DNA of 64,000 nt from a virus: IMG/VR virus record IMGVR_UViG_3300023063_000003, positions 2,749 to 66,748 of that record, one strand, 5' to 3'. Below the pieces are notes generated by a model. It saw nothing but the letters and a program-made list of their open reading frames with translations. It did no database searches and was not told where the DNA came from. Within the stretch, counting starts at the first letter, position 1. Each line of letters begins with the position of its first letter. Shown here piece by piece: positions 4,490 to 27,529 of this stretch. A program made the position numbers and the translations under genes.

Positions 4490-4598
4490 TTCTTCTATTC
4501 TTCCATATTATTATTATTATTATTATTATTTAAAAATATAGAAGAAGTGAATAAGTGCCAGAGAAATTTTCGGCGATGGAAGTGTGGAAGTATGGAAT
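4490..4598. repeat. AT-rich element A: 9-bp inverted repeat around (TAT)8, followed by three GGAA repeats; candidate replication origin element
   Basis: TTCTTCTAT 4490-4498 / ATAGAAGAA 4538-4546; (TAT)8 4506-4529; GGAA at 4578, 4586, 4594. Confidence 0.6.
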
Positions 4599-4661
4599 AG
4601 TGGTGCCATAGTTCGGGACTGTGCGTCCCATGCAAACAGAGTCATGGCCCTCATATTGAAG

Positions 4662-12275: not shown

Positions 12276-12542
12276 TTAGCCGAACTCAGTTGGTGGGACG
12301 ACTTCGATTTCCTTGATGCGACTTTCCAACCGCCGCGCCGCGTGGTCGGTCAGCATGGCGATCAGCGCTTCGGTTGCAGTGTCACCGTACCCATTAGCGG
12401 CGAACTTACCGGTATGTGGATTCAGGTAACAACGCACGCGCTTCTTCCCAGTGATTACGTGGAATTCACTATCCATGAAACTGAGACTGCCAGCGGCAAC
12501 GACGATGTTATCGAGCGCCAGGAGGATTTCGTCGGAGGTCAT
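12276..12542 (-). CDS. Small protein, array member 5 (RL-tail family)
   Basis: GDTATEALIAMLTDHAARRLES; coupled start. Confidence 0.55.
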   Translation of the reverse strand: MTSDEILLALDNIVVAAGSLSFMDSEFHVITGKKRVRCYLNPHTGKFAANGYGDTATEALIAMLTDHAARRLESRIKEIEVVPPTEFG

Positions 12543-12844
12543 TTCAACCTCGCTTGAGCCATGTTGATTGCCAGTGCTCCCAACGCATCACGCACTGATC
12601 CACCACCACCGGTCATCAAACCCTTATCACTTTCAAGTTTATAACTGATCTGCCAGCTGTGAGTATTAGAAAGGAAAGTACGCTCGAGCTTAATACTGCC
12701 GCGCACCAGCAGATTTTCGAGCATGTCGAAAAGCATGGCATCCACTGCGGGATCACCAGCTGGTAAATCTGGTTGGTAGTCTTTCCACTTCGGATTGAGC
12801 AGTCGTGCATACGCAGAACTAGCTTCCGGTTTCCAGTCATCCAT
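12539..12844 (-). CDS. Small protein, array member 4 (RL-tail family)
   Basis: GSVRDALGALAINMAQARLK*. Confidence 0.55.
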   Translation of the reverse strand: MDDWKPEASSAYARLLNPKWKDYQPDLPAGDPAVDAMLFDMLENLLVRGSIKLERTFLSNTHSWQISYKLESDKGLMTGGGGSVRDALGALAINMAQARLK

Positions 12845-13067
12845 CTAACCTCCCTGCGACCTGATAAGCAATCAGCTGACCAATCACGTCTTCGCGCGTT
12901 GGGCCGTTGAACTCTGCGACTGGTCTACCAAAGTCCACATCACCGTCGATCGGATAAAGCGTTATACACGGCGGGTTCTGAGGTTGGTTCCCATCTACCA
13001 CAAGACTGCCGCTACTTATCGCCGTCCACAGTGCTTCGATCTGCTGTGCTTCAGTTGGTGTGTTCAT
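12837..13067 (-). CDS. Small protein, array member 3 (RL-tail family)
   Basis: QQIEALW...GPTREDVIGQLIAYQVAGRLDG*. Confidence 0.65.
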   Translation of the reverse strand: MNTPTEAQQIEALWTAISSGSLVVDGNQPQNPPCITLYPIDGDVDFGRPVAEFNGPTREDVIGQLIAYQVAGRLDG

Positions 13068-13306
13068 TCCAGCCTCTCTGCAACTTGGAAAGCGATCAGT
13101 TGGCCGATCGCGTCTTCGCGCGTCGGGCCACTAAAAGTCTTTATACGCTCACCATTACTACCGTTCGTAGTGTTTGTATAGAGTGCCAAAGCTTCAGCAC
13201 GGTCGCTGCCTACTTCTCCTGGAATATCGACACTAATCCAGTACTTTGAACTGCGTAGCATCGCCCATAGTGCATCGAGCTGCTGTGTTTCAGTCAGTAT
13301 GTTCAT
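13064..13306 (-). CDS. Small protein, array member 2 (RL-tail family)
   Basis: QQLDALW...GPTREDAIGQLIAFQVAERLE*. Confidence 0.65.
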   Translation of the reverse strand: MNILTETQQLDALWAMLRSSKYWISVDIPGEVGSDRAEALALYTNTTNGSNGERIKTFSGPTREDAIGQLIAFQVAERLE

Positions 13307-13569
13307 TCCAACCTCTCTGCAACTTGAAAAGCGATCAATTTTTCAAGCATATCTTCAAGGGTCATTGCCCGAAGATAAACCACAGCTCGTGTTTCAGGAT
13401 TTTCAAGCGCCATACAAAAATCATCGGCCCAGAGAATGACAGGATATTGAATGTCCCGTTGGCCCGGCGAGTGAAAGGATTTGTTGTAGCCCTTCGAGGT
13501 AAGCAGCCACCACAATGTGGCGATCTGCTGATCCTTACTTGGAATAATTGGCTGCATAGCCACCCTCAC
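13303..13569 (-). CDS. Small protein, array member 1 (RL-tail family)
   Basis: QQIATLW...EDMLEKLIAFQVAERLE*; overlaps the polymerase 3' end. Confidence 0.6.
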   Translation of the reverse strand: MRVAMQPIIPSKDQQIATLWWLLTSKGYNKSFHSPGQRDIQYPVILWADDFCMALENPETRAVVYLRAMTLEDMLEKLIAFQVAERLE

Positions 13570-15646
13570 AATTCAACGGAATATCTGCACACCACGTCGG
13601 CGGCGTCCGCATGATTTTCATCATGTCATCGAAACACTTCTTCACCTTAGCGATAGTGGAGATGCACACCACTTCATCATGAGTTGTGGTGACGACGCGC
13701 CAGCCACGGTGCGCAATATCGAGCATCTGCTCAGCGACGATGATCCTGGCCAGTGCCTGCACCAAGTTCTCACATAAAAGCCCGCCGTAAATCTTGACGC
13801 GCTCGCCCTTGCGCTCATATGACCACTCGTCCCAATCGGTTTCCTGATTGCGCTCGAGTTTGAGCTTCGGATACTTCAGGCACACACCATTCGGCAAGTA
13901 GACCTTGTCCTTGTCCCACGAGATGCACTTGTGGGAGCCGGTGATGCCGCGCGCCATCTGCGGCAAGATCACATCGGTGCAGAACTTCCAGCCCTGCGCG
14001 ATCTTGAAGTTCTCACGCCGGTACGTGTTCACGATGTTCTTGCACATCGATTCCTCGAAGAAGACCGGTGGACCCATGTTCCCCAGCGCCAGCGTGGTCT
14101 GGAACTTGTTGTGGCCCATCTGATAGCCCAGGCCCAGCACGGCGACCTTGCCGACGAAGCGTTCGAGCTTGTCCTTCTTGGTGATCTCGCGACCGTAAAT
14201 CTTGGACGCGAACCGGCAGTAGGCATCCACGCCCTTGCCGGCGTCGGCCGCCGCAAACGCATCGAGAAGATCGGTCTGATCCCACAACCAACCATTGACT
14301 CGTGCTTCGATCTGGCCCGAATCGACGACGACGACCTGATGACCCTTCGGCGCCAGGATCGACTTGCGCAGCGTGCCGGTCGTGGCCGGATTGTCCGGGT
14401 CTTCACGCTTGAGGTTCTGCATGTTCATCTTGTTGCCACCGGACCAGCGCCACGTGTGCGCGCCGGCATACTTGAGGAACACCGGTAGCGGCATCCCGTT
14501 CGCACCGGCATTGAGGAAGCGCTGCGCACGCGTCTCATTGGTCGTCGACTTGACTGACAGGCGCGTCTCGACCAGGTCGCGGACCTTGGCGTCCGGGTGC
14601 TCGAGCAGCGAACCGAACGCAAGGTCAGTCTTGGCGAATGCATACGCCCACTTCTTCGATTCGTCGCGCGTCTTGAAGTAAGCCGGCGAGATTTTCATCG
14701 GTGGCTCGACGCCCACGTCGCGCAGCATCTGTGCAAAGACCTCATTGCTGCCGATGGCCTTCTTGGCGCGGAACAGGAGCAGCGTGCGAATGTCCGGATT
14801 GTCGTGGCCCTTCTTCCTCAGTTCGCTGATCTCCGGCTTGGTGATGATCGCGGCGACCTTCATCTTCATCATCTGGCGCAACTCAGCCTTGGTGCCGAGT
14901 GACGAGAGCAGCAGTTCTTCTTTTTCTGCGATCTCGCGGACCAGTTCTTTTTCGACCAGCGGAATGTCGACCAGCAGCACCGGGTCGGTGAACATCTTCA
15001 CGGTCAAGTCGATCAGCTCGATCTCCCGGGTCGGAAATTCAGCCAGCATCTCCTTGAAGATTTCAAGCGCCAGGTTCACGTCCTGGGCGCAATACTTCGC
15101 TGCCTTGTCATACAGCGGCTTCGGCCAGTTCAGCACGCCCTTGGTCTGATCTAGTACGCCTTCGACCTTGTTGCCCTTGCCATAGTATTGGGCCACTTCA
15201 TCCAAGCCGGCGCCGATGTCATTCGACAGCAGACCACGCGCCATCGACAGCGTGTCATAGATAAAGCACGGCTTGATCTTGTAGTGGTGGGACAGGATGA
15301 AGCAGTCGAACTGCGCGTTGTGGCACAGAATCGAGTGCGTCGACCAGTCAATCGCCTGCAACTCAGCTTTGAGCTTCGCGGCCGGGATCACCTTCGTGGC
15401 CTTGGTGCCGATCTTGACGCCGACCATTTGTGCCTTGAAGCGCGCATCGCGCACATACTCACTAGTCGACAACTTGCGCAGCGTGTAGGTATCATCCCAA
15501 TACGTTTCAAAATCGAGCACGACCAACTTGGCCCAATCTACTTTGTGCCGCGCGTGCACCGCCATCATCTTGGCGATCGTCGCGGCCATAATTTTCGCTG
15601 CCGGCTTGGCCACCGGCTTGGCTTGTACTGCGCTGCCCCAACCCAT
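13535..15646 (-). CDS. polA: Family A DNA polymerase with 3'-5' exonuclease
   Basis: Exo LDFETY/HNAQFD/YCAQDV; motif A DSGQIEARV, motif B RFVGKVAVLGLGY, motif C THDEV. Confidence 0.92.
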   Translation of the reverse strand: MGWGSAVQAKPVAKPAAKIMAATIAKMMAVHARHKVDWAKLVVLDFETYWDDTYTLRKLSTSEYVRDARFKAQMVGVKIGTKATKVIPAAKLKAELQAIDWSTHSILCHNAQFDCFILSHHYKIKPCFIYDTLSMARGLLSNDIGAGLDEVAQYYGKGNKVEGVLDQTKGVLNWPKPLYDKAAKYCAQDVNLALEIFKEMLAEFPTREIELIDLTVKMFTDPVLLVDIPLVEKELVREIAEKEELLLSSLGTKAELRQMMKMKVAAIITKPEISELRKKGHDNPDIRTLLLFRAKKAIGSNEVFAQMLRDVGVEPPMKISPAYFKTRDESKKWAYAFAKTDLAFGSLLEHPDAKVRDLVETRLSVKSTTNETRAQRFLNAGANGMPLPVFLKYAGAHTWRWSGGNKMNMQNLKREDPDNPATTGTLRKSILAPKGHQVVVVDSGQIEARVNGWLWDQTDLLDAFAAADAGKGVDAYCRFASKIYGREITKKDKLERFVGKVAVLGLGYQMGHNKFQTTLALGNMGPPVFFEESMCKNIVNTYRRENFKIAQGWKFCTDVILPQMARGITGSHKCISWDKDKVYLPNGVCLKYPKLKLERNQETDWDEWSYERKGERVKIYGGLLCENLVQALARIIVAEQMLDIAHRGWRVVTTTHDEVVCISTIAKVKKCFDDMMKIMRTPPTWCADIPLNCEGGYAANYSK

Positions 15647-15668
15647 ATAAATCCTTTCGTTTGTTTTT

Positions 15669-15762
15669 GTGATCGCCCACTACGTCCTGGAACTATTTAA
15701 CGAGCACGCAGGAATCGAACCATGTTCCACCAGGAATCCAACCGGGCCGTGGAGGCGATCAC
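15669..15762 (-). ncRNA. Candidate structured RNA with two T-loop-like hairpins
   Basis: Closing stem GTGATCGCC/GGCGATCAC; internal GG-TTGGATT-CC and GG-TTCGATT-CC; TGGAAC/GTTCCA helix. Confidence 0.45.
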
Positions 15763-15763
15763 C

Positions 15764-15785
15764 AAAAAGCCGGCTTTGCGCCGGC
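15764..15785 (-). terminator. Intrinsic terminator after thyX
   Basis: GCCGGC-GCAAA-GCCGGC-TTTTT on the minus strand. Confidence 0.65.
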
Positions 15786-15791
15786 AAAGAA

Positions 15792-16592
15792 TTAAAGTGA
15801 AATAATTGCACGGAACTGATGCCAGCCTTTGAAGTTACGGGACGCGGCATCCACAAAACTAGCAGCAAGTGCCTGATGCTCGAACGGCGATGCGTGGCCC
15901 GACGACTTGAGTGTTTCGGCCAGGACCAAATCTTTTTCGACGTTCGGCGCCGAACCATCATGGTTCAGATACGAGACACGCGCGCACCGCGCCGCCGAGA
16001 TCAGGCAAAGCTCATGTTTGTCAAAACCTTTTGCAATATCATCCGCAGTGATGTACGGAAGATGCCAGTCGGTCAGCACCGGTTGCGATACGCCTTGCGC
16101 TTCGCTCATCATCACGGCGAGATGCCGGAATTCTGGTTGCGCCATTGGCGACAAGCGCAGGTTGAAGAAATTATCCCACTCGGTCGACGTGACGAGCGTG
16201 TGCATCCACTGGAACGGTTCGAGGATGCGATTGACAACCTGCTTGTGGAGGCCCATGTTCATCATATCTTCAGCGATATTTGTCGCATGGACTGCTGCAA
16301 CATTCCAATACTCTCGGGCCGCTGCCAGATCGTGTCCTTTCGATTCCTCCCCCGCCTGCATCCCGGGCTTGTTGCTGCCCCAGTGGATCGGCGCGGCCGG
16401 GTTGGTGCGCACCTGCTCGATCATCTTGGCGACCGGCACCGCGCGCGAGGACATGGCATTGCGCGAGAAGACGCGGTGCGTCATCAATTCACTATGGATG
16501 AAGCGCGGATAGGTCAGGGACATCGTGATGATGTCCTTGCCGGCAGGGCTGGTGGAATGAGCGACAATATCTGCTTTGAAATTCATGATCAT
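15792..16592 (-). CDS. thyX: Flavin-dependent thymidylate synthase
   Basis: PRFIHSELMTHRVFSRNAMSSRA, SAARCARVSY, H.SPFEH. Confidence 0.9.
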   Translation of the reverse strand: MIMNFKADIVAHSTSPAGKDIITMSLTYPRFIHSELMTHRVFSRNAMSSRAVPVAKMIEQVRTNPAAPIHWGSNKPGMQAGEESKGHDLAAAREYWNVAAVHATNIAEDMMNMGLHKQVVNRILEPFQWMHTLVTSTEWDNFFNLRLSPMAQPEFRHLAVMMSEAQGVSQPVLTDWHLPYITADDIAKGFDKHELCLISAARCARVSYLNHDGSAPNVEKDLVLAETLKSSGHASPFEHQALAASFVDAASRNFKGWHQFRAIISL

Positions 16593-16611
16593 GCTTTCAT
16601 GTTGAGGTAAA

Positions 16612-17040
16612 TTATTTAAGAGCTGCGCGACGTTGGATCGTCGCGTTCACAGCTCTTTCGATATCGATCGCGCGAATATTTTCGAGCTGTGCATCGAAGC
16701 AGTCCAGGGCATCGCCGATGATCAACGCTTCGCCGCCGCGCAGCAGCAACTTGGGCCGGTACCGCACAAGCTGCAGCACAGTGCGCGCGTCGGCTATGCG
16801 GCTGATCAGCTCAAGGCCAATGCCCTGGTCACACAGTACCAAGCCGATGTCGACAGCGTCAACAAGGGCCGTGATGTGGTCCGCATTGGCATGACCCATC
16901 GCCAGCGCGGCCAGCGCGCCGTGGTTCTTGATCTTGAGCTTTTGCAGGTCGCCGGCATACACCGCGCTGATGTTCCCGAAGATTTTCAACGGATCAACAG
17001 CGGTGTATTTCGGCCCCTGGTACTTCTTGTGGCGTTTCAT
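16612..17040 (-). CDS. Hypothetical phage protein
   Basis: ATGA-coupled; helical protein. Confidence 0.6.
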   Translation of the reverse strand: MKRHKKYQGPKYTAVDPLKIFGNISAVYAGDLQKLKIKNHGALAALAMGHANADHITALVDAVDIGLVLCDQGIGLELISRIADARTVLQLVRYRPKLLLRGGEALIIGDALDCFDAQLENIRAIDIERAVNATIQRRAALK

Positions 17041-17306
17041 TCAGGGACCGCCGCGCAAGGCCCGTCGTGGCCGGCCACACGTGTGCAGCGCCAACCAGGA
17101 GGCGGGACAGTGCAGACAGCAGGTGTTTGCGCTGCCAGTGCTTGCGAGGCGAGAGCGGCTTGCCAGCCTTCCCACGCTGCTTGAACCTGCATAAGCGGAA
17201 ATCCGCCGCTGTTGTTTATTATGAGCTGGGCTTTGGCCCAACCAACAGACATGGCCCACGACTTAAACAACACCAACTGCGCATCCAGATCAATCTTATC
17301 CATCAA
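17037..17306 (-). CDS. Hypothetical protein with AAWEGWQAA motif and C-terminal Cys/His motif
   Basis: C..PPPGW.CTR..GH.GPC. Confidence 0.55.
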   Translation of the reverse strand: MMDKIDLDAQLVLFKSWAMSVGWAKAQLIINNSGGFPLMQVQAAWEGWQAALASQALAAQTPAVCTVPPPGWRCTRVAGHDGPCAAVPE

Positions 17307-18679
17307 AACGCTCCCGAAAAAAGTTCCAACAAGTTCGTCATGCGCTTGCCCTTCTTGAGCATCTTCTCGTAGACCTGATCCTCGATCGTGTCCTTGGCGA
17401 TCACGACGATGGTCTCGGTCTTCTGTGTCTGCCCATTACGGAACGCGCGCTTGTTCCCTTGAACGAAGTGCTCAAGATTGTAGGTCGGCGATGGCCAGAT
17501 CGTCGCCGTGGCCCGGGTCAGCGTCAAGCCATGCGCGGCCGACTGCGGGTGCGCAAAGATGACCTGATAAAAACCGTTCTGATAATCACGGATCATCTCG
17601 TCACGTGCTTTGCTCGACGTGGTGCCATCGAGCACGCAGAACTTGATGCCGCGCTTGATCGACTCTTTGATCAGCAGATCGCGCTGGTGCTTCCACAGAA
17701 AGAACACGATCGAGTGCTTGCGCTCTTCGACCAAGTCCATGACCATCTCATACCGGCCGGTGTCGATGACGTGGTAGTCATCTGGCGTCTGGTACACAGC
17801 ACCGGACGCGATCTGCAGCAGCTTCGTCGTTACCGCCGCCGCATTGATCGCCGAGACGACCTTCATCTTACCCAGCGCGGCCATCTGCGTCAGCGCCATT
17901 TCGCGGTACGTGCGGCCCTGCTTGGTCGGCATCGTGTAGGGCACGGTGTACTGGAAGTTTTCCGGAATGTCGATGCAGTCCTCGAACTTGTGCCGGATCG
18001 TGATGTCGGCCAGGAGCGAGAACACTGATTCCTCAGCGCCGTCCTTATCCTCCCACTTCACCATCTCCTTGCGTGGCCCAACCTGCACCGGTTGACATAC
18101 CGCGTTGCGGAAAGCGAAGAAGCTGCTGCCCAGCCGACGTCCGTCGTCAAGGAAGAAGACCTGCGACCACACATCGGTGATCGAGTTCGGGTTCGGCGTG
18201 CCAGAGAGCGCAGACCGGTACTCGAAATACTTCTTGATCTTTTGAAGCGCCTTGGTGCGCGCGCTGGTGTGGTGCTTGAACGCAGTCGACTCGTCGACCA
18301 CGATCGTGTCGAACTTCTTGAAGAAGCCCTTCGGCTGCTTGGCCAGCCACACGGCAGCGTCGATGTTCGTGATGTAGACATCAGCGTCAAGCGCGAATGC
18401 CTTATCACGAATTTCTGCGGTCGCGATCGAGCAGGTCATGTCCGGAGCGAACTTCTTGAAGTCCTCCTGCCATGCTGCATCGAGCAGCGACTTCGGCGCC
18501 ATGACCAGCATGCAGCCACCACGCGCGCGGCGGCGCTTGACGAACGCCATGATCTCGACGAACGTCTTGCCGGTACCTGGGTCACTCATATCGAACACGA
18601 TGGGTGTCGTGCCCATGAACTTCAGGGAAAAACTTTGGTGCGCCATTGGCTTTGGTGCTTTAATTTTGGCCGTCGCCAT
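17303..18679 (-). CDS. SNF2-like superfamily 2 helicase
   Basis: DPGTGKT, VVDES, LSGTP, AHGLTL, Q...R..R.GQ. Confidence 0.9.
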   Translation of the reverse strand: MATAKIKAPKPMAHQSFSLKFMGTTPIVFDMSDPGTGKTFVEIMAFVKRRRARGGCMLVMAPKSLLDAAWQEDFKKFAPDMTCSIATAEIRDKAFALDADVYITNIDAAVWLAKQPKGFFKKFDTIVVDESTAFKHHTSARTKALQKIKKYFEYRSALSGTPNPNSITDVWSQVFFLDDGRRLGSSFFAFRNAVCQPVQVGPRKEMVKWEDKDGAEESVFSLLADITIRHKFEDCIDIPENFQYTVPYTMPTKQGRTYREMALTQMAALGKMKVVSAINAAAVTTKLLQIASGAVYQTPDDYHVIDTGRYEMVMDLVEERKHSIVFFLWKHQRDLLIKESIKRGIKFCVLDGTTSSKARDEMIRDYQNGFYQVIFAHPQSAAHGLTLTRATATIWPSPTYNLEHFVQGNKRAFRNGQTQKTETIVVIAKDTIEDQVYEKMLKKGKRMTNLLELFSGAF

Positions 18680-18929
18680 TGAACCCTCCTAACTGAAAAT
18701 TATTTTCGAGGTAGCGCTGGCATGCCAACCAGTGCGCCGCCTCAATTGGACGATCATCGAGCCGACAGATCACAACTCGGCGCGCAGCTTCGTCGCGGTG
18801 CGCACGCGCATCCGGGACATGCCGTTCGCGCTTACCTGCACGGATGACATCGTTCCACAACGATGTCGTGAACGTAAAGCCGATCTCCACATCGCTGAAC
18901 AACTGGATACGATCTCCCCGTGGGCGCAT
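18660..18929 (-). CDS. Hypothetical protein
   Basis: TAATG-coupled start; fills the gap. Confidence 0.4.
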   Translation of the reverse strand: MRPRGDRIQLFSDVEIGFTFTTSLWNDVIRAGKRERHVPDARAHRDEAARRVVICRLDDRPIEAAHWLACQRYLENNFQLGGFNGDGQN

Positions 18930-19711
18930 TACATCACTCCGCGTTCACACACGCCCGAACCTTTCGGGCCATACATGCACCATTTGCATGTCCATACATT
19001 CGGGTTCGGCGGAAAGTCCACCGCACTCGTCATTTTCTCGGCGCGCATGTCCCACTTCTGCCGGAAGCGCAGCCCCTGGTTGCGCAGGTAGGTCATCGAG
19101 GTAATTTCATCCTGGTCGAGATACCACAACTCCGTGTGGACTTTCTCGAGCTGCGGATAACGCAGAAACGTGACCAGCTGATACAGCTGCAACTGCTCGG
19201 CGTGCTTGACCTCATTGCCAAATTTGCGCCCAGTCTTGTAATCGACAGCCACCGCTTCGGTCGGCGTGATGAACACCAGCGCGTCGAGCTTGAGACGCAG
19301 CCATGCTTTCTTCCACTCGGCCGGTTCCCAGCCGGAGGACATGCCCCACTCGCCCTCGAGCGAGACACGGCCATCCTTGAACGAGTTCTGCATCGACATG
19401 AACTCCTGCTGGAAGCTGTTCATCTCATGGCCGAACTTCGCCTTGCCGCGCACGAACAACTCAGCCGTATCATGGATACGCGAGCCGCGGTCGTTGGCGT
19501 GTTCGGTTTTGCCAGGAGGGAGTGGACGTTCAGGTTCAGGAATTTTTTGTACCCGCTTCAGGAAGGAGCGGTACTTGCAGCTCTCGAACTCGGTCAAGGA
19601 TGAGAAGGACCAGGACTTCAGCGGTGGAACAAGAATGGGTTCTGGCTTGATCATTTTGATCGGTATGACGCGCGCTGGCGCGACTACACGGGAGCGTGCA
19701 GCAACTGGCAT
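18929..19711 (-). CDS. Cas4/RecB-like PD-(D/E)XK exonuclease with Fe-S cysteines
   Basis: WSFS..F..C, G..IH, KLD..VDYKTG, QLQLY, C..C...C. Confidence 0.85.
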   Translation of the reverse strand: MPVAARSRVVAPARVIPIKMIKPEPILVPPLKSWSFSSLTEFESCKYRSFLKRVQKIPEPERPLPPGKTEHANDRGSRIHDTAELFVRGKAKFGHEMNSFQQEFMSMQNSFKDGRVSLEGEWGMSSGWEPAEWKKAWLRLKLDALVFITPTEAVAVDYKTGRKFGNEVKHAEQLQLYQLVTFLRYPQLEKVHTELWYLDQDEITSMTYLRNQGLRFRQKWDMRAEKMTSAVDFPPNPNVWTCKWCMYGPKGSGVCERGVM

Positions 19712-19763
19712 GGTGTTTCCTTATTGAATTAATTGAGGCGCCAGTATAGCCGATTGGAAATGC

Positions 19764-20459: not shown

Positions 20460-20469
20460 GATCTACACC

Positions 20470-21615
20470 TCAGATTTCAATCGGGATCGTGTGGCCGAAC
20501 GGCGCCACTTCCTTGTTGATCGTCACCCACAACACCGGGAACTCAGGCGGATGATCCGAGAACGGACCATACAGATCGGTAAGATAGATCATGCACATCG
20601 GCGGCTCGTTGAGCGCCTGGGCGGCTTCGATCGCCGGCCGGAAGTCCGTGCCGCCGCTGCAAAAGCGCGTCAACTGGAATGGATCATCTGGCCCAAATTC
20701 TTCGACCTTGCGCACGTCGGAGTCGAAGTGCATCACGGTGATCTTCTCAGGCCGCATGTCTTCCTTGATCGCTGCGATCTCGGCGCTGAACGCGGCCACG
20801 ATGTTCATGTCGACCGAACCAGATTCATCGGACGCCACCACGATCTGACCGACCGCTTCGCTGTACAGCCCCGGCAGATAGAAGCCAGCGGCCAGCATCT
20901 TGCGGTTCGCGCGCGACCACGAGTAATCGTTCTTCGCCGCTTTCGTGACGAACTCGCGCAGCTCGGCTTTCCAATCCACCTTGTTCTCGGTGAGCTGTTC
21001 GACGAACTGCTCGATGCCGGCCGAGAGTTTGCCCACAGCCTTGGCAGCATTTGCTGCCTGCACCGCAGCGATCTTCCACTCGGCCGCCGACTGCTGCGCC
21101 ATTGCTGGATCAGGTATGCCGGCCACGAGCTGGTCGAGCGGGCCTGGACCCTGGTTGCCCGAGCCAGGACCACCACTACTGCCCGGTGGGTTCGTCGGCA
21201 GCTTGGCATAAATCTGCTCAGCAGTCATGCCGCTGTAAGCTGGATCAAGCAGCCAGTCGTTCGGGACCGTAAAGCCGGACTTCTTCAAAATGTCATTGAC
21301 GACATAGTCGGCTGCATGGTTCCATTTTTCTGGATTGAGTGTCAGGCCGCGGCTCGAAGGACCGCAGTGATCGAGCACGCAGTGCATGACCTCGTGCGCC
21401 AGCGCGCTCTTGGCCACATCATTCGACAACGTGTTCAAGAACTTAGCGCTGTAGCGCACGTCCTTGCCATTGACGACCAGCGTTGGCACGCTGTTGTCTT
21501 CGATCAGCTTGAGGCGCATCGCCAGTGTGCCGAAGAACGGATTATCGATGAGCAGGTTGGTGCGCGCCTTGGTAATTTTTTCAAGCGCTTTCAAGTCAAT
21601 TGTTGGGCCGGCCAT
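20470..21615 (-). CDS. DUF2201-type zincin metallopeptidase-VWA fusion
   Basis: HEVMH, WN.A.D..VN; VWA MIDAS DESGS, GGTDF, YLTDLY. Confidence 0.88.
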   Translation of the reverse strand: MAGPTIDLKALEKITKARTNLLIDNPFFGTLAMRLKLIEDNSVPTLVVNGKDVRYSAKFLNTLSNDVAKSALAHEVMHCVLDHCGPSSRGLTLNPEKWNHAADYVVNDILKKSGFTVPNDWLLDPAYSGMTAEQIYAKLPTNPPGSSGGPGSGNQGPGPLDQLVAGIPDPAMAQQSAAEWKIAAVQAANAAKAVGKLSAGIEQFVEQLTENKVDWKAELREFVTKAAKNDYSWSRANRKMLAAGFYLPGLYSEAVGQIVVASDESGSVDMNIVAAFSAEIAAIKEDMRPEKITVMHFDSDVRKVEEFGPDDPFQLTRFCSGGTDFRPAIEAAQALNEPPMCMIYLTDLYGPFSDHPPEFPVLWVTINKEVAPFGHTIPIEI

Positions 21616-21617
21616 TT

Positions 21618-21872
21618 TTATTCTCCTATGATCTGTAAAAAGTTATGCGCCACTTCCGAGGCACCTTTGTCGAATGGATGCGGACCCTCGAATGGCTCAT
21701 CACATCGATTGCTGATTTCTTGCGCCGACATCTCGCCCGAAGCAATCACGCGTGCTGCCCAGTCGCGGCCAGCATTGTACTGAGCTTGCCGCAGCTCGAG
21801 CTTGCGCCATGCGCGATGCGCCGCGCGCTCGCGTGCGCTATCATCCAGCCACTGTTTGAATCTGGTCCACAT
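21618..21872 (-). CDS. Hypothetical phage protein
   Basis: AAGGAG RBS; Y..G..WA...FDKG pattern. Confidence 0.55.
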   Translation of the reverse strand: MWTRFKQWLDDSARERAAHRAWRKLELRQAQYNAGRDWAARVIASGEMSAQEISNRCDEPFEGPHPFDKGASEVAHNFLQIIGE

Positions 21873-21884
21873 TATGCTGCTCCT

Positions 21885-22280
21885 TTAGGCTTCGCCGGCA
21901 AGCCGCAGCTCGATGACTTTTGTGACAACAGTGGCGCCGAGGGTGTCTTTGCCATCGCGCGCCTGCTGTTCAATTTGTTCGATCCACCAGATGCGCCAAG
22001 CAGTATCCCACCGGCGAAAAGTGATGAGATTTGAGTTATACTTTTTGTCCTTTGCCGCCAATGTGCACAGCGCTACGTTATACATCTGCGCCCGGGCTTC
22101 ATCTTCACGGTCTTGTTCCTGCGCAGCCAGCATCGCGACCTCGTCATCAAATTCTGCTTCCTGGTCCGGCGCCTCGCCGACAATGTCTGGGACATCGGGC
22201 GCCACAGGTACAACCGGTGCTTCAGGAAGTTTTACATGCAGTCCGTCTTGACGTCGACCGGGCAAAGTTTTGAATGCCAT
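21885..22280 (-). CDS. Hypothetical protein (RL-tail family)
   Basis: Ends VVTKVIELRLAGEA*. Confidence 0.55.
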   Translation of the reverse strand: MAFKTLPGRRQDGLHVKLPEAPVVPVAPDVPDIVGEAPDQEAEFDDEVAMLAAQEQDREDEARAQMYNVALCTLAAKDKKYNSNLITFRRWDTAWRIWWIEQIEQQARDGKDTLGATVVTKVIELRLAGEA

Positions 22281-22282
22281 GG

Positions 22283-22528
22283 TTAATCCAATCGACTTTT
22301 GACGAACTCAGGTGAAAGTATTTTGCGTATGTCCGATGTCGGCGCATAGCCCATTGCGACGAGGATCGCGAGTGAACTTTCCCGCGACCCATACATGGAA
22401 GGCAAATTATCCATAGCGCGATAAACACGCTCTTCGGTAGCACACATTTTTATTACAGCAGCAATCCACGCTTTGCAAACCTCATGATTGTCGAGCCAGA
22501 AATCGCCCATTTCTTTTGTGGTTGGCAT
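22283..22528 (-). CDS. Hypothetical protein (RL-tail family)
   Basis: GGAG RBS; ends SPEFVKSRLD*. Confidence 0.55.
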   Translation of the reverse strand: MPTTKEMGDFWLDNHEVCKAWIAAVIKMCATEERVYRAMDNLPSMYGSRESSLAILVAMGYAPTSDIRKILSPEFVKSRLD

Positions 22529-22529
22529 A

Positions 22530-22763
22530 TTAATCTCCGTCGATTCGGTTCATCACGCAGTACGTGATGATCTGCTCTTCGATCGTACCGTCGAACTCGC
22601 AGTTGCGGATCGTATCGATGAGTGCACGAAGATCACTAGGACGAAGATCATTGGCGACATTATCGTAAATGCGCTGCACTACTTCATGCGTATGATTTAG
22701 CTCGAGGAATTTTTCGGCGAATTTACGCGCCCAGTAGTCACCTGCTGCATTGGTCTCCATCAC
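22530..22763 (-). CDS. Hypothetical protein (RL-tail family)
   Basis: Ends IITYCVMNRIDGD*. Confidence 0.55.
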   Translation of the reverse strand: MMETNAAGDYWARKFAEKFLELNHTHEVVQRIYDNVANDLRPSDLRALIDTIRNCEFDGTIEEQIITYCVMNRIDGD

Positions 22764-23050
22764 TCACCATCCAATCGATTGCGCACCACCCGAACTCGTA
22801 CCATATTACCGAGGGCGACGAGATCAGTGATCGACGGATAGCTCTTGGCGATTCGCTTGAGCATCCAGTCACCTTCCTGCATGGCGGCGTTGATGAAACC
22901 GACGAATGAAAGGTGATGTGTCCCACCAATGACCAGCATCCTGGCTGCGTCAGTGGCATCAGCATTTTCACGACTCAGTTCTTCCAGCGCTGTTTCATAC
23001 CGGATGACCTTTGCCGCTTCGTCCTCGTTTATTTCGTGGGGGAGTGCCAT
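22760..23050 (-). CDS. Hypothetical protein (RL-tail family)
   Basis: Ends VRVRVVRNRLDGE*. Confidence 0.55.
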   Translation of the reverse strand: MALPHEINEDEAAKVIRYETALEELSRENADATDAARMLVIGGTHHLSFVGFINAAMQEGDWMLKRIAKSYPSITDLVALGNMVRVRVVRNRLDGE

Positions 23051-23877
23051 GGTTTCATTTGCTCCAAAACGAATGCCGCATCATCAGCGACCTGCTTGCG
23101 CAGCTTCTTCGACTTGCGGATATCGCCCGGATCGATCAGCAACCCGAGCGTCAATTTGCGCACTATTTCCAGGTTCGGATCGTCAGTAATGTTGAGTTTT
23201 GGCAACAAATCACACAGAACCCGGCCATTCTCGATGAGGCTGTCACGGAACACCGCGTCAGGGTCGCCCAGCCGGTCCACAAGGCGCGAAATGACCTCGT
23301 GCAGCCTTTCCCAGCACTCTTTTACTGCAGAGGCTTGGCGGGCCGCTACGCCCGCCGTGATGCTCTTTTTGATCTCTTCCACGGCCTCATCGCCGATATC
23401 GACCCGGAAATCAGCTGCTGAAGGGACCGGCGCGAAGCCCAGGTTGACACCGAAGCGATGGGCAATCTGGCCCACGTCCGGATAGTCACCCGGCTCGTAC
23501 ATCGTACCGAGCATGACGCGCGCATCCTGCACCAGTTGCGGATAGAAGCGCACGAAGTCTTCGACCGCAGCCTCGAACCGGGCGCGCAGGTCACGCATGC
23601 CGTCGACATACTCCATGTAGACGCGCGCCGGCAGAATACGGTCACCGTTGTCACCCCAGGGCAGCGTCAGGCCGTAGTGGTACGAGCGGATCGCGCCTTC
23701 GAGCTTGCTCATCGGCTCGAGCGCAGTCGGGTCAATGAGACGCTTGTTGAACCAGCCGGCTTTCTTTTCCGATGCGCCGTGCTGCGCCTGAATGGCTTTG
23801 GACACGGAGTTATCTTTTTTGCTGGCGGTCCACTGACTGACACTGAGGTTGACCAGCATGGCTTTTTCTTGGAGCAT
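23029..23877 (-). CDS. DUF3150-like protein
   Basis: AMLV.L.VS.WTA.K.D, TLPW.D.G.R.LP, LN.T.DP.L; lies next to the MoxR/VWA genes. Confidence 0.7.
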   Translation of the reverse strand: MLQEKAMLVNLSVSQWTASKKDNSVSKAIQAQHGASEKKAGWFNKRLIDPTALEPMSKLEGAIRSYHYGLTLPWGDNGDRILPARVYMEYVDGMRDLRARFEAAVEDFVRFYPQLVQDARVMLGTMYEPGDYPDVGQIAHRFGVNLGFAPVPSAADFRVDIGDEAVEEIKKSITAGVAARQASAVKECWERLHEVISRLVDRLGDPDAVFRDSLIENGRVLCDLLPKLNITDDPNLEIVRKLTLGLLIDPGDIRKSKKLRKQVADDAAFVLEQMKPWHSPTK

Positions 23878-23879
23878 GA

Positions 23880-24404
23880 TTAGCTTTCGATTCGTTTTAT
23901 AAAATCCTGAATGATGAATGATTCGCGCAGGGCTTCTGCGGAACTAGTCTCGAAGGGATCGGTAAATGCAGGTACATCACATTCAGCGCGGACTGCTTTA
24001 AGGTACTCATTAAATTCTTTGGCAAGACGCAGTGCTGCGGCGTTGCTTCTATCCCGGCGCGGTTGGCGAATCCTGGGAAGTGCAGCATCAGCAAGTGCCT
24101 GCATGATTAATTCTTTGGTCGTATCTTTGTTCGACCAGAGTGAACCAGCCGGGTTACGACAGCGTACAACTTTCAAACTACGCGCAGCGCTAAGCGCCAA
24201 GCTAATATGGTTGTTCGTGCTTTGGCTATTACGCTTATTCGTGATGACGACTACTTCTTTAAACCGCCGCGCGACACAAAAATGCTCGCCATAGCTGAAA
24301 AGGAATTCGCCTTCAAAATAAAAATTTTTGGTACGGCCTTCTTGCTGTGATTGCTTGGCCCAGACTTGCGCGACTTCTTTGATGGTCGCTAAATTTTTAC
24401 GCAT
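23880..24404 (-). CDS. Hypothetical phage protein (RL-tail family)
   Basis: FSYG.H..S.ST..H domain; ends IIQDFIKRIES*. Confidence 0.6.
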   Translation of the reverse strand: MRKNLATIKEVAQVWAKQSQQEGRTKNFYFEGEFLFSYGEHFCVARRFKEVVVITNKRNSQSTNNHISLALSAARSLKVVRCRNPAGSLWSNKDTTKELIMQALADAALPRIRQPRRDRSNAAALRLAKEFNEYLKAVRAECDVPAFTDPFETSSAEALRESFIIQDFIKRIES

Positions 24405-24407
24405 GAT

Positions 24408-24614
24408 TTACCTTTCGAGTTTGTATATCGTCCACTGTTTGATCACCTCGCGGCGCAAGTCATCATTCGTATTTTTCCACCATTCGTGCGGGTTAAAATA
24501 ACGCGACAGCGTTCCCCACATTCGAGCAGTTTGGATTATTCTTCGGAGCCGAAGTATTTCATGTACCGTGATCGCTTCAGGGCAAATCAGCGGCTCAATA
24601 TTAGGTGGCGTCAT
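24408..24614 (-). CDS. Hypothetical protein (LICP paralog, RL-tail family)
   Basis: LICP motif; ends VIKQWTIYKLER*. Confidence 0.5.
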   Translation of the reverse strand: MTPPNIEPLICPEAITVHEILRLRRIIQTARMWGTLSRYFNPHEWWKNTNDDLRREVIKQWTIYKLER

Positions 24615-24880
24615 CGCGATAACCTCTGGGCTATGTACTCAGTGAGGATCTTTTTCTTCTCCATCGGCGACCAGGAGTAATCCCACATCGACTGAAGTTC
24701 GCGGTTGAGCAAAGCAGGCCCAGTAGAATAAGTCAAGGACATCATCGTGTTCGTGAACATACCTTCTGCCCACCGCCTATCCATATGCGCCACCTTAGTC
24801 AGCGCAGCGCCAATTTCCTTGGCTTCCTGCTGCGAGGTGATGATCGGGCAGATCAGGTTGTGCGAATTAGCCATGTTCAA
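24611..24880 (-). CDS. Hypothetical protein (LICP paralog, RL-tail family)
   Basis: LICP motif; ends ILTEYIAQRLSR*. Confidence 0.5.
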   Translation of the reverse strand: MNMANSHNLICPIITSQQEAKEIGAALTKVAHMDRRWAEGMFTNTMMSLTYSTGPALLNRELQSMWDYSWSPMEKKKILTEYIAQRLSR

Positions 24881-25328
24881 ACCGGTACTCGACGAACTTC
24901 ACCCACAATTCAGCGACCACGCAAGCTGGTGATACGCTGGCTGCGCCGGCCACGAGGTTGCGATGGGCTTCGGGATTATTGCGAAAAACCTTCCAGCCGA
25001 ATGTCGGATCAGCGCGAACAATCCGGTCGTCGATACCAGTATCGATCAGTGCGCGCAGCATGCACATTTCGATCGGTGACTCACGATGCGTCGGGACTGT
25101 AAATTGCGCTGGTGTTGCTAGCTTGTCGTACGCATAAAGTTTACGGTCTTTTAGTTCTTGCAGCATAGGGCCAAAAGATTTATCAGCCATTATTAGGCTT
25201 TTAACTAAGTCCAAATGATTCAAACTATTTTTCCGCATCAGCATGTTCACCGAATGGACCAGATGAATACTGTCCATCCACTTTATTTCCAGGACTCTGC
25301 CGTCCTGTGTGGTCCACGTCGTGCTCAT
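24867..25328 (-). CDS. Hypothetical phage protein (RL-tail family)
   Basis: W.TQDGR...I..M...HL..S...L N-terminus; ends LWVKFVEYRFEHG*. Confidence 0.55.
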   Translation of the reverse strand: MSTTWTTQDGRVLEIKWMDSIHLVHSVNMLMRKNSLNHLDLVKSLIMADKSFGPMLQELKDRKLYAYDKLATPAQFTVPTHRESPIEMCMLRALIDTGIDDRIVRADPTFGWKVFRNNPEAHRNLVAGAASVSPACVVAELWVKFVEYRFEHG

Positions 25329-25930
25329 GGCTTCTTCCTTTCCAACTCAGAGCTTTCGTCAACAATAACTCCTGTCGGCGAGTTCCCAGAAAGTTTGCTT
25401 GGTTTTGTGGGATCGTACAGATGCTGATATGCGAACAGCTGTTGAGCAGTAAGTCGGTCATTAACTGCCCTATGCGTTTTCCATCCGGCCGCGTGTATAG
25501 CATCACCAGTATCGAATCGACTGCGCGCGTCTCGGCCTTCCAGGGTCATGGCAATCATCTCCTTGACGACCTTTGCTGCACGCCGGCCTTTCGGTGTGTC
25601 GTGCTGCGCGAGCATGCGATAGTGCGCCTCGAGTTCGCGCTTGCGTGAGGCCGGCGCGAACTCATAATAATTATTGCCGACGCCGAGCACGCGACGAAAT
25701 GCCACGGCCCAGCGCCATTCATCCGGTTTGCTGTAGTCGATCGAATAACTGGCAGCGGCTTCGGCTGGATCACTACCTGCCTTGGCTTTGATAATAGTCT
25801 GCTGTGCGTATCTATTTTTGTACTTAGACGCCAGCGCCCGTCCTATTATTTTTGCTTGTTCGCTTGCAGACACCGGCAATATTTGATTGTTCTTATCAAA
25901 CTTGACGCTTGTCTCGAGATCGAAGTTCAT
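25325..25930 (-). CDS. Hypothetical protein (start uncertain)
   Basis: Long open frame between MoxR and the next coupled gene. Confidence 0.45.
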   Translation of the reverse strand: MNFDLETSVKFDKNNQILPVSASEQAKIIGRALASKYKNRYAQQTIIKAKAGSDPAEAAASYSIDYSKPDEWRWAVAFRRVLGVGNNYYEFAPASRKRELEAHYRMLAQHDTPKGRRAAKVVKEMIAMTLEGRDARSRFDTGDAIHAAGWKTHRAVNDRLTAQQLFAYQHLYDPTKPSKLSGNSPTGVIVDESSELERKKP

Positions 25931-25973
25931 CGCAAAATCTGGATGAACTCCATCGAACTTGATGCCCTGGTAA

Positions 25974-27044
25974 TCAGCTGAGCAAGCTGCTGTGCTTGAT
26001 GGCGAACTGCATGTACTCTTTCGTTTCCGTGATCGCACGATTCGTCCTTTTCTGCGCGTCGCGCACATATACAACCTGCCACTCAGGGTCCATCCGGCCC
26101 ACGTACTTCATGAAGCGTGGGAACACGTCCTTCGTCGACGCCGACGCTAGCGCGGCCGTGATGGCGAAGAACACCGCAGCCGTTTCTGGCAGCGGTGTGC
26201 CGTCCGGATCGAGCTTGATCTGGTCGATCGATGGCAGATCGCGGAACACCTGCAAGAACGCCTTGAACTCGCCGGCTGCGGCTTCGCCCACGGTGCCCTT
26301 CAACATCTCGAACTCGACCTCGGCCGACAGATCGCTGTTGATCAGTTCGCCGCAGAAGACCCAGCCGCGCGGGTTTGGCGATGAGCGTTGCGCTGGATCG
26401 AACGCGTGCAGCAGGTCCGGACGGAAGCGGATGAACGCCAGCAGTTCAGTCGGTACCGCATCGCCCTGACCCAGCGCCCATTCGCACCAGTCATCAGCAT
26501 TCACGTCATAGTCCAGATGGATCAGCCGCAGCGCCAGCGCCGATGGCATCTTGATCGCATTGGCACGGTCTGTCTCACGGTTGCCGGCGGCCAGGATCGC
26601 CCAGCCATCAGGCAGTTTGTAGTCGCCGACCTGGCGCGTGAGCAGCAGCTGGTACGCCGCAGCCTGCACGGTGGACGGCGCCTGATTGAGTTCGTCCAGG
26701 AACAGGATGCCACGCGACGGGTTTGGTACGGTCTGCAGCTCCGTCACCGCAGCCGTCTTGCCCTTGGCCGGCTTGATCTCGACCTCTTGCTCGACGAACA
26801 TCGGTGGGAAGAAGTTCGCTGGCAACCACTGCATATTCCCGGCCGCGACGTCAGGCACTGGGAAGCCTTTCACGTCGGTCGGGTCGAGCAGGTTCAGACG
26901 CACGTCAACGAGCTGCATGTCGCCGGCCGCGGCGACCTGGGCGATCAGATCGGACTTGCCGACGCCCGGTGGACCCCAGACGAATACAGGACGCTGCTTG
27001 GCGACAGCGACATTGAGAGCTTCACGGATTTGAATTGGACGCAT
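25974..27044 (-). CDS. MoxR-like AAA+ ATPase
   Basis: Walker A GPPGVGKS, Walker B LFLDELNQA, AAGNR, arginine finger ALALR, PRGW; AAGGA RBS before ATG 27044. Confidence 0.9.
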   Translation of the reverse strand: MRPIQIREALNVAVAKQRPVFVWGPPGVGKSDLIAQVAAAGDMQLVDVRLNLLDPTDVKGFPVPDVAAGNMQWLPANFFPPMFVEQEVEIKPAKGKTAAVTELQTVPNPSRGILFLDELNQAPSTVQAAAYQLLLTRQVGDYKLPDGWAILAAGNRETDRANAIKMPSALALRLIHLDYDVNADDWCEWALGQGDAVPTELLAFIRFRPDLLHAFDPAQRSSPNPRGWVFCGELINSDLSAEVEFEMLKGTVGEAAAGEFKAFLQVFRDLPSIDQIKLDPDGTPLPETAAVFFAITAALASASTKDVFPRFMKYVGRMDPEWQVVYVRDAQKRTNRAITETKEYMQFAIKHSSLLS

Positions 27045-27057
27045 GATGAATTCCTTA

Positions 27058-27306
27058 TTAATTGAGACGTTGAGTGAATTGATTGATGAGATATTTTTCA
27101 AGCCGGTCGATGATTTTAAGTTGCTCATCGACCTGACTGGTATAAAGGTTGGTGCTGATTGTGTTGCTACTGCGCCGCTCGATCTCGGCCATTATTTTGA
27201 ATGACCATTGACCGCTGAATCCTCGAATATGCTCAAGAAATTTTTCGTCGGTCATGTCCTTAAATTCAGAACGCCACGATGTCCATGGATTTTTAAGGAT
27301 GTCCAT
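27058..27306 (-). CDS. Hypothetical protein (MTD..F paralog, RL-tail family)
   Basis: Ends YLINQFTQRLN*. Confidence 0.55.
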   Translation of the reverse strand: MDILKNPWTSWRSEFKDMTDEKFLEHIRGFSGQWSFKIMAEIERRSSNTISTNLYTSQVDEQLKIIDRLEKYLINQFTQRLN

Positions 27307-27529
27307 CGAGCCTCCGTATCACTTTTTGAGTGAAGCGATGTTCTAAATGTTTTATAAGGTAAATCTGTTCATTGGCATACATCGGAAATTTACGACCTGC
27401 ACGGCGTTGTATTTCAATCTGAATTAACGTCGACCAGGGCGTGCCGAGCTTCCAATACAGGTACGCGATAAATTCTGCATCGGTCATGGCAGCGAGCGCT
27501 TCGAGATCGAGAAGACGCTGCTTGCCCAT
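27293..27529 (-). CDS. Hypothetical protein (MTD..F paralog, RL-tail family)
   Basis: TGATG-coupled start MGKQRLL; ends FTQKVIRRLDGHP*. Confidence 0.55.
   Translation of the reverse strand: MGKQRLLDLEALAAMTDAEFIAYLYWKLGTPWSTLIQIEIQRRAGRKFPMYANEQIYLIKHLEHRFTQKVIRRLDGHP

Follow-up and report, generated by a model that had tools for sequence, protein, structure and literature searches.

Why should some 15 small and diverse proteins of one phage end in the same way? The window in which they lie, and to whose positions all coordinates below refer, covers 64,000 of the 66,748 bases of a single IMG/VR virus record (IMGVR_UViG_3300023063_000003), which is estimated to be complete. A sequence-only reading had noticed that these proteins share a C-terminal tail, an Arg-Leu pair or a close variant followed by a few residues at the end of a helix. 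It had proposed that the tail docks them, as interchangeable adaptors or as substrates, onto a machine encoded among them: a MoxR-type AAA+ ATPase, a DUF3150 protein, and a protein that joins an HExxH metallopeptidase to a VWA domain (together, the module). The motif is real. It is a C-terminal feature at the protein level, extends across a clade, and is carried by small, fast-evolving proteins of several folds; its Arg codon is often recruited as the Shine-Dalgarno (SD) sequence of the next gene. The interpretation is partly supported: the link between the tail and the module is positional only, and the small proteins may be adaptors, substrates or neither.

Among cultured phages, the nearest relatives are KPP25 and phiR18 of Pseudomonas (Kochitakasuvirus), with which the phage shares replication genes; the major capsid protein is 61% identical. 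A megablast search with 16 kb of the window against a phage collection gave no match. Further relatives came from three scans, one based on MoxR (21 loci; the full records of five, G001 to G005, were used), one with a DUF3150 profile (80 loci), and one with a helicase profile (80 loci). Individual loci carry L numbers, and the phage of the window is G000.

The C-terminal motif and its codons

Between about 4.5 and 38.2 kb, the minus strand is a densely packed block of replication and nucleotide-metabolism genes; the virion genes are on the plus strand. All 15 C-termini quoted in the sequence-only reading were recovered on the minus strand (Table 1), and the observation of an Arg-Leu tail is confirmed. 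At 12276 the RRLES motif is followed by 15 further residues.

For the counts we defined a strict tail, R[LI]x1-5$, and a loose tail, [RK][LIF]x1-5$, and used internal windows of the same proteins as background. "Early" open reading frames (ORFs) in these counts are the small genes of the replication block (<200 amino acids). In a hand-curated gene list, the strict tail ends 14 of the 64 genes on the minus strand and none of the 24 on the plus strand, with an internal-window background of 3.9%; the loose tail ends 18 of 64, against 11.3%. In an automatic gene list, 12 of 48 early ORFs carry the strict tail (background 4.4%, binomial p = 9e-7), a conservative count because overlap rules caused the list to miss the genes at 27058 and 27293. 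In the same list, none of the 16 larger early genes and none of the 27 other (including late) genes has the strict tail.

To avoid a post hoc choice of motif, all 400 dipeptides were scored in the last 7 residues after BLASTP clusters had been collapsed. RL ranked first in this phage (7 clusters where 1.2 were expected, p = 1.8e-4, 0.07 after Bonferroni correction), first in G002 (11 versus 2.0), and second in G003. When G000, G002 and G003 were merged and orthologues collapsed, RL was again first, with 19 against 3.35 expected (p = 1e-9). The pattern is wider than the dipeptide. At position -3, 20 of 31 families have V or I, and hydrophobic residues recur at -12, -8/-7, -4/-3 and +1, as in an amphipathic helix. 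In the phage studied here, D or E directly follows the dipeptide in 11 of the 15 tails. The sequence-only reading knew of no description of such a system, and we found no such tail described in the literature on DUF3150, phage DUF2201, MoxR/vWA phages, C-terminal motifs of phage small proteins, and KPP25 (supplementary files excluded).

A first alternative holds that the motif is a by-product of translation: the Arg would be the in-frame AGG of the SD of a coupled downstream gene, and the Leu and the helix would reflect chance or the composition of a GC-rich genome. Among the 15 tails the motif residue is encoded by AGG in six, CGA in four, CGG in three, CGT in one, and AAA (Lys) in one, which agrees with the codons that had been listed. 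The six AGG codons are all placed 4-8 nucleotides ahead of the following ATG, and no second SD-like word accompanies them, so that the AGG doubles as SD. Over five genomes, AGG accounts for 22 of 46 motif Arg codons compared with 4% of the Arg codons elsewhere in the same genes, and part of the signal is thus translational. The D, E and G residues that follow R-L in this phage are, moreover, encoded by SD-like GAx and GGx.

Overlap with the SD nevertheless explains only some of the cases, as the sequence-only reading had stated. The other nine tails use CGA, CGG, CGT or AAA at 7-111 nucleotides from the next start, and six of these have a separate SD-like element. In G000, G002 and G003, an Arg located 3-7 residues from the end is followed by L or I in 39 of 78 cases, against 134 of 916 (14.6%) for internal Arg; when only CGN codons are counted, the terminal value is 18 of 48 (p = 1.4e-4). 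The corresponding values for this phage alone are 12 of 27 against 39 of 274, with 7 of 18 for CGN only. An SD works in any frame, yet the AGG is in frame and is then followed by Leu, which is itself spelt CTG, TTG, CTC, TTA or CTT. In locus L013 the tails read R-L-K-G-x-L, with a CGN Arg and the SD within the K-G codons, and in L058 they read R-L-R-G with the SD within the L-R-G codons; the amino acid pair is therefore the constant, and the SD shifts around it. The V or I at position -3 also speaks against a by-product, as do G005 and KPP25, which have the same gene packing and no enrichment.

The motif thus exceeds background with SD codons controlled for, and it does not vanish where the Arg codon is not SD-capable. 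These results support the tail as a protein-level feature and not merely an SD by-product. The translational explanation, already largely refuted by the CGN-only statistics, is very improbable, and we consider it highly probable that the tail is a selected protein-level motif. Where spacing allows, the in-frame AGG is dual coding, specifying the Arg and serving as the ribosome-binding site of the next gene. The idea of a stop in the +1 frame (C-TGA) across the Leu codon and the one after it was dropped; such a stop is present in relatives and absent in this phage.

Families and folds that carry the tail

Among the tail proteins, BLASTP joins only 12837, 13064 and 13303 to one another and 27058 to 27293. 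Alignment adds two divergent members to the first group, giving a family of five tandem genes (12276-13569, family A) in which only M1, R78 and L79 are invariant. Because of this paralogy, about 8-9 independent families remain among the 15; the proteins are diverse, as had been claimed, but they are not 15 independent cases. An hhalign comparison of 26 families and singletons (325 pairs) reached a best probability of 50%, confined to the last 26 columns, and gave no convincing relation beyond the helix; since the profiles are shallow, remote homology between families could still exist. We found neither homology nor a common fold outside the tail that would make the proteins one paralogous superfamily.

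AlphaFold2 models were obtained for family A and for F1, the family of the small gene at 21885. The F1 model is all-alpha with four helices (predicted local distance difference test, pLDDT, 86.5), and its last helix, residues 89-103, contains R101-L102. The family A model has an alpha-beta-beta-beta-alpha topology (pLDDT 67.7), and its last helix, residues 63-79, ends with R78-L79. Both models place the tail at the end of a helix, and with hhalign they bear out the suggestion that the N-terminal parts belong to several unrelated families. Cys-rich tail families, from L058 and L013, form a third kind. Judged from the models, the tail is carried by at least two folds and probably by a third. Neither model had a Foldseek match in the PDB at E <= 0.001; the family A model gave weak matches to the double-stranded RNA-binding domains of TRBP, PACT and Staufen (TM 0.41-0.49, E about 0.4-0.6), which have a similar topology.

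The Cys-rich proteins are encoded in tandem arrays of 4-7 small paralogues (L058:174-1600 and L013:12174-13796) that end ..A-L-x-R-L-[RKQ]-G-x-x, with the SD of the next gene in the L-R/K-G codons. They probably bind zinc.

F1 lies between DUF3150 and VWA in G000, G002, G003, G004 and G005, and R-L is kept in all of them, followed in G005 by a 10-residue extension. Members are also present in L039, L056 and L065. An alignment of 12 sequences has just three invariant or near-invariant columns, V97, P87 and R101, and a search of 1.84 billion protein representatives with an F1 profile recovered at least 138 clusters at 50% identity. Among 138 representatives, 127 end in [RK][LIMFV]x0-6 and 70 in the strict R[LI]x1-5, 47 of the 70 with exactly two residues after the pair. 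The proteins are about 70-80 amino acids long with a conserved end, Q-A-x-x-G-x-P...V-x-x-x-R-[LM]. F1 had no Pfam or PHROG match, and the ESM Atlas returned only unnamed clusters at <=0.90.

Homologs lacking the tail had been named as an outcome that would refute the idea. Orthologues keep it (..AERLTS in L119, ..IRMTK in L123-126, ..YRLTR in L121, ..LRLTR in G003), the single exception being ..YLMTKG in L039/L178. All ten orthologue pairs of G002 and G003 have ratios of nonsynonymous to synonymous substitution rates (dN/dS) of 0.15-0.50, which indicates that the genes are real.

The main rival to a docking function is common descent, in which the tail has a purely structural role. The tail genes would go back to a small number of founders, F1 and family A among them, that spread by tandem duplication and shuffling of 3' ends, the R-L helix would stabilize each domain through capping, packing or dimerization, no partner would be shared, and the module junctions would be places permissive for insertion and duplication. 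Tandem paralogues are indeed clear: 12837/13064/13303, 27058/27293, five F1 copies in L039 (ends ..VIAER[LMI]x), and the Cys-rich arrays. The product of 22760 has a weak match to the F1 hidden Markov model (E = 0.008) and is possibly a remote F1 relative. In this phage the tail genes are housed in two ORFan islands of low GC content at third codon positions (GC3). The GC3 of the tail genes (12276-13569 and 21885-25328, minus strand) is 0.45-0.58, against 0.7-0.8 in core genes, and they score poorly under a codon model trained on long genes; both fit recent gain or fast turnover. In both AlphaFold2 models the tail helix belongs to the domain as an ordinary element of secondary structure and is no floppy appendage, and between G002 and G003 orthologues the last 12 residues are barely more conserved than the rest (87 of 120 versus 418 of 622).

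Descent from a few founders does not account easily for at least two and probably three folds, or for the lack of any hhalign relation outside the helix. R and L are invariant in family A and among the most conserved residues of F1, unlike the hydrophobic core positions, and the number of residues between R-L and the C-terminus of F1 is constrained. Unrelated families within a genome also share a flavour of tail, RL[DE] here, RLK[SQ] in G002 and G003, RLT[QT] in G004, RLKGxL in L013, and RLRGxxx in L058; such convergence is unexpected for an intramolecular role. Taken together, we regard common descent with a purely structural role as doubtful.

The neighbouring module and possible partners

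Ten of the tail genes had been described as interleaved with the three module genes. This arrangement was confirmed, and all three module genes were identified by Pfam (Table 1). The ATPase scores 23.3 bits with AAA_5 (cut-off 22) and just misses the cut-offs of 27 for AAA_3 (26.8) and bpMoxR (22.3); these profile matches and its Walker A and B motifs place it among the MoxR-class AAA+ ATPases, and the tblastn matches of the gene are annotated "MoxR-like ATPase". Its VWA partner is encoded 4.4 kb downstream on the same strand. The DUF3150 protein (PF11348) is above the gathering score, and reached 29.9 bits in the genome search. [quoted passage not shown] Profile searches of PDB sequences found no solved relative of DUF3150 (best E = 0.04) and nothing significant for the VWA protein. 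The order MoxR-DUF3150-VWA holds in all 33 non-redundant loci that have the three genes. The three proteins end ..KHSSLLS, ..PWHSPTK and ..HTIPIEI, respectively, and thus lack the tail.

Between VWA and MoxR, eight of ten ORFs carry the tail (six strict, two with K or F). The remaining tail genes of the phage are five by the polymerase, two upstream of MoxR, and one at 37249. This phage's tail proteins are almost all absent from the five relatives, which have tails on other proteins. Different small genes of G002 and G003 end in ARLKS, ARLKQ, LRLEWS, LRLKA, ARLTK, QRITQ, ARLQS or ARLLK, and those of G004 in ELRLTQ, IRLTT or AERLTQ. The tail is found on 14 of 46 early ORFs in G002, 13 of 54 in G003, and 4 of 30 in G004. 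Tail-rich phages from the DUF3150 scan are L056 (12 of 22), L060 (5 of 10), L065 (5 of 14), and L058 (7 of 20).

In eight distant module phages (L082, L088, L089, L092, L100, L101, L108, L114), an orthologous small protein encoded just downstream of VWA ends ..KHR[IL]GV.., and another recurrent small protein of distant module-bearing loci ends ..R[IL]xMK.

We tentatively favour, at clearly less than even confidence, a common docking tag for one partner, most likely the phage's own MoxR-DUF3150-(metallopeptidase-VWA) machine. Taken by parts, docking to some common partner is about evenly balanced between true and false, and we hold it clearly less likely than not that this partner is the module. 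The element "...hydrophobic-x-x-[V/I]-x-x-R-L-x(1-5)-COOH" would be a protein-level recognition element formed by the last turn of a C-terminal amphipathic helix, kept or gained by many fast-evolving small accessory proteins in a clade of KPP25-related podophages. F1, a conserved small protein that resembles a module subunit, has the archetypal tail, and in several lineages arrays of tail genes occupy the gene junctions of the module. A shared partner is suggested because R and L, and not core positions, are the most conserved residues, because unrelated families in one genome share a flavour, because in F1 the spacing between R-L and the C-terminus is constrained, and because tail genes pile up inside one module.

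Short shared C-terminal elements have precedents. The clamp-binding tails of T4 and the acidic tails of T7 are similar C-terminal peptides on unrelated phage proteins that dock to a known hub; they are unstructured and few per genome, whereas the motif described here forms the end of a helix, is present on as many as a quarter of the small genes or more, and has a hypothetical hub. The effector-associated domains (EADs) of MoxR-vWA/NTPase conflict systems, which Kaur et al. are said to have described in 2020, reportedly span about 80-100 amino acids and pair homotypically between core protein and effector. The concept of one short helical module on many unrelated proteins, coupling them to a core NTPase system, is similar. 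However, the shared element here is about 15-20 amino acids long and absent from the ends of MoxR, DUF3150 and VWA, so that it does not qualify as an EAD-type adaptor.

The module resembles NorQ-NorD, CbbQ-CbbO and RavA-ViaA in that its MoxR-type ATPase gene has, close by, a VWA gene whose DxSxS..T..D MIDAS is intact. It differs in that its VWA is fused to an HExxH peptidase and that DUF3150, and often F1, lie between the genes. Those systems each have one dedicated client, in contrast to the dozens of small tail-sharing proteins here, whose status as clients is hypothetical. According to the NorQ/NorD study (PMC9976466), MoxR has the VWA protein as its adaptor, and an acidic residue from the target serves as the sixth ligand of the VWA MIDAS. 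If the module works similarly, its MIDAS metal would take an acidic ligand from the tail, which in this phage would be the D or E after R-L and in others the free carboxylate close to the pair; specificity would come from Arg and Leu, and ATP hydrolysis by MoxR would then remodel the client or pass it to the HExxH peptidase.

Jumbo phages encode a MoxR ATPase and a vWA cochaperone with an N-terminal metallopeptidase, for which roles in virion assembly and peptidolytic processing were proposed (Iyer et al. 2021, PMC7824862). This pair of domains is shared with our module; DUF3150, small tail proteins and a shared C-terminal motif are not mentioned in the portion of that paper seen. The module here lies in the replication block and outside the virion genes.

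Co-occurrence of the tail with the module in related phages had been named as a check, and it was borne out in part. Inside the module the tail is enriched: across the 33 non-redundant loci, a strict tail ends 29 of the 92 small ORFs that lie between MoxR and VWA, against 48 of 590 in the flanks (odds ratio 5.2, p = 8e-9), although these counts come from a crude longest-ORF caller, the paralogue arrays are not independent, and spurious ORFs in the outside set pull its rate toward background and inflate the contrast. Most module phages, on the other hand, are at background.

The docking-tag reading has to be weighed against this and a number of other observations. Most loci from the DUF3150 scan have a contiguous MoxR-DUF3150-VWA with background tail counts, and 8 of the 33 non-redundant loci have no small ORF inside the module at all. 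The 16 more distant MoxR loci (L006-L021) have 21 tails among 290 ORFs, with L013 as the sole exception to the low counts. In L119, the closest full relative (67% helicase identity), the count is 3 of 18; it is 3 of 44 early ORFs in G005, which is not significant, and 2 of 21 in the partial record of G001. The tail-rich genomes all belong to one clade, so that the co-occurrence of tail and module is phylogenetically confounded. Five of the 15 tail genes adjoin the DNA polymerase, 7 kb from the module, the tail genes of G002 and G003 are dispersed over about 25 kb, and in relatives such genes occur throughout the replication block. An acidic residue after R-L is frequent in this phage alone and rare in G002 and G003 (mostly RLK[SQ], RLT, RLL), whose basic tails weaken the side-chain version of the MIDAS-ligand idea. 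The translational share of the signal, the integration of the helix into both modelled domains, and the modest conservation of the last 12 residues, all described above, count on the same side. With tail genes elsewhere and most module phages at background, the tail needs the clade and not just the module.

A predicted complex of the VWA-peptidase, DUF3150, Mg and F1 residues 34-106 scored 0.00 and 0.00 against a mark of 0.32; it was run without controls and was counted neither for nor against binding. We also looked for a receptor by phyletic pattern (present in G000, G002 and G003, absent from G005). Only dUTPase, two unnamed proteins and a late protein fit, and the genomes are too few for this to be meaningful.

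The tail could instead be read by the host, as a C-terminal degron through which a host AAA+ protease would limit protein lifetime, or as a handle on a host hub, with the closeness to MoxR and VWA being incidental. In bacteria and phages, degrons and docking tails at the C-terminus are both established. Tail genes far from the module, the many module phages without tails, and genome-specific flavours, which fit adaptation to different hosts, all agree with this explanation. To our knowledge, however, the motif is unlike the C-terminal degrons ssrA (..LAA) and MuA (..RRKKAI). The enrichment of tail genes inside the module argues against a host reader, and so does the finding of F1 only with the module: it was detected in 17 of 93 loci with DUF3150 and VWA (16 times between those genes) and in 0 of 35 loci without any module gene. 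Relatives that lack the module are also at background, namely KPP25, which has no MoxR, DUF3150 or VWA and one tail among 43 small annotated proteins, and helicase-anchored loci without the module for at least 9.8 kb upstream (11 of 158). A host-read tag seems quite unlikely to us.

Other candidates were set aside. A membrane-targeting amphipathic helix of the MinD/FtsA type is at odds with the acidic tails found here; only the tails of L013 would suit PDZ-type C-terminal ligands; and a recombination junction disagrees with a conserved pattern that reaches about 12 residues upstream and varies at synonymous sites.

Returning to the common docking tag, its most extended form would make the tail an address. 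The podophage clade would have turned a MoxR-DUF3150-F1-(peptidase-VWA) machine into a general client handler, and dozens of rapidly evolving accessory proteins with unrelated folds would mimic the C-terminal helix of F1. The tail proteins would be interchangeable adaptors that bring host targets to the AAA+/protease, or clients whose lifetime the machine sets, and the flavours would reflect co-evolution with the receptor site. As a complete scheme this is unlikely. A shared tag would give one handle for a whole class of proteins, since the majority of the small early and middle proteins of phages are ORFans that offer none, and it could reveal the client range of a widespread and uncharacterised phage MoxR/DUF3150/peptidase-VWA module. 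Should it serve as an address or a degron, the phage would itself encode a way to organize or time host-takeover proteins. Even with a structural role only, the results define the large unnamed family F1 and a case of dual coding in which the AGG for Arg is the ribosome-binding site.

Coordinates and gene neighbourhood

Table 1. Features of the window, with the tail genes listed first.
Feature	Position	Strand	Basis or remark
Family A tandem paralogue, ends ..FQVAERLE	13303-13569	-	Arg AGG, 5 nucleotides before next ATG
Family A, ends ..FQVAERLE	13064-13306	-	AlphaFold2 model of its alignment alpha-beta3-alpha; orthologue in L119
Family A, ends ..VAGRLDG	12837-13067	-	BLASTP, alignment
Divergent family A member, ends ..AQARLK	12539-12844	-	Alignment only; not joined by BLASTP
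Divergent family A member, RRLE(S) motif and extension	12276-12542	-	Alignment; Arg CGG, 111 nucleotides from next start
F1 family member, ends ..VIELRLAGEA	21885-22280	-	Likely start 22205; conserved small gene between DUF3150 and VWA
Singleton tail gene, ends ..VKSRLD	22283-22528	-	Arg CGA
Singleton tail gene, ends ..VMNRIDGD	22530-22763	-	Arg CGA; separate GGAG follows
Tail gene, ends ..VRNRLDGE	22760-23050	-	Right after DUF3150; weak F1 match
Tail gene (174 amino acids), ends ..FIKRIES	23880-24404	-	N-terminal 100 amino acids match phrog_7247
Tail gene, Lys variant, ends ..TIYKLER	24408-24614	-	Sequence
Tail gene, ends ..IAQRLSR	24611-24880	-	Arg AGG, 8 nucleotides before next ATG
Tail gene, Phe variant, ends ..VEYRFEHG	24867-25328	-	Orthologues in G003 and L121, one ..YLMTKG
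Tail gene, ends ..FTQRLN	27058-27306	-	Paralogue of 27293; Arg CGT; separate AAGGA after stop
Tail gene, ends ..IRRLDGHP	27293-27712	-	Likely start 27529 (78 amino acids); BLASTP paralogue of 27058
Additional small ORF, absent from the sequence-only reading, ends ..QRTRLKEK	37249-37410	-	Same end type
MoxR-type AAA+ ATPase	25974-27128	-	Likely start ATG 27044 (after TAAGGA); Pfam; Walker A GPPGVGKS, Walker B ILFLDE
DUF3150 protein (PF11348)	23029-23877	-	Pfam 31.1 bits (cut-off 24.9)
HExxH metallopeptidase and VWA (DUF2201_N and DUF2201)	20470-21615	-	Pfam 152 bits and 86.4 bits
Family A DNA polymerase region	13535-15646	-	Pfam
SNF2 helicase	Replication block	-	Pfam
PD-(D/E)XK nuclease	Replication block	-	Pfam
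ATP-dependent ligase	Replication block	-	Pfam
dUTPase	Replication block	-	Pfam
DUF5906 primase-helicase	Replication block	-	Pfam

None of the 15 tail proteins had a Pfam match above cut-off. Among the ten searched against PHROGs, the only matches were the one to phrog_7247 and a weak one to phrog_16964.

Several neighbouring genes have features of their own. The 46-amino-acid ORF at 4495-4635 (minus strand), at the boundary of the two strand blocks, closes with eight consecutive Asn (..LNNNNNNNNMEE). Its GC3 is 0.38, and it probably represents non-coding, A/T-rich DNA. At 4714-5727 (minus strand), a 337-amino-acid protein contains an N4 gp49 / Sf6 gene 66 domain (99.7 bits) and a C-terminal RyR domain (38.4 bits).

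The 1065-amino-acid DUF5906 primase-helicase-like protein (31895-35092, minus strand) has an Intein_splicing match at residues 537-755 with 34.9 bits, just below the cut-off of 35.8. KPP25 aligns to this protein at residues 1-483 and 752-1037 only. The match and the alignment gap fit the insertion of an intein in this phage.

On the plus strand, a 570-amino-acid ORF (62290-64000) is still open at the end of the window, and a 1764-amino-acid ORF runs from the first bases of the genome to window position 2548. If the record is circularly permuted, the two may be a single giant virion protein. The C-terminal part of this putative protein matches a KPP25 "virion structural protein" (35% identity over 854 amino acids), which also crosses the origin of its record.

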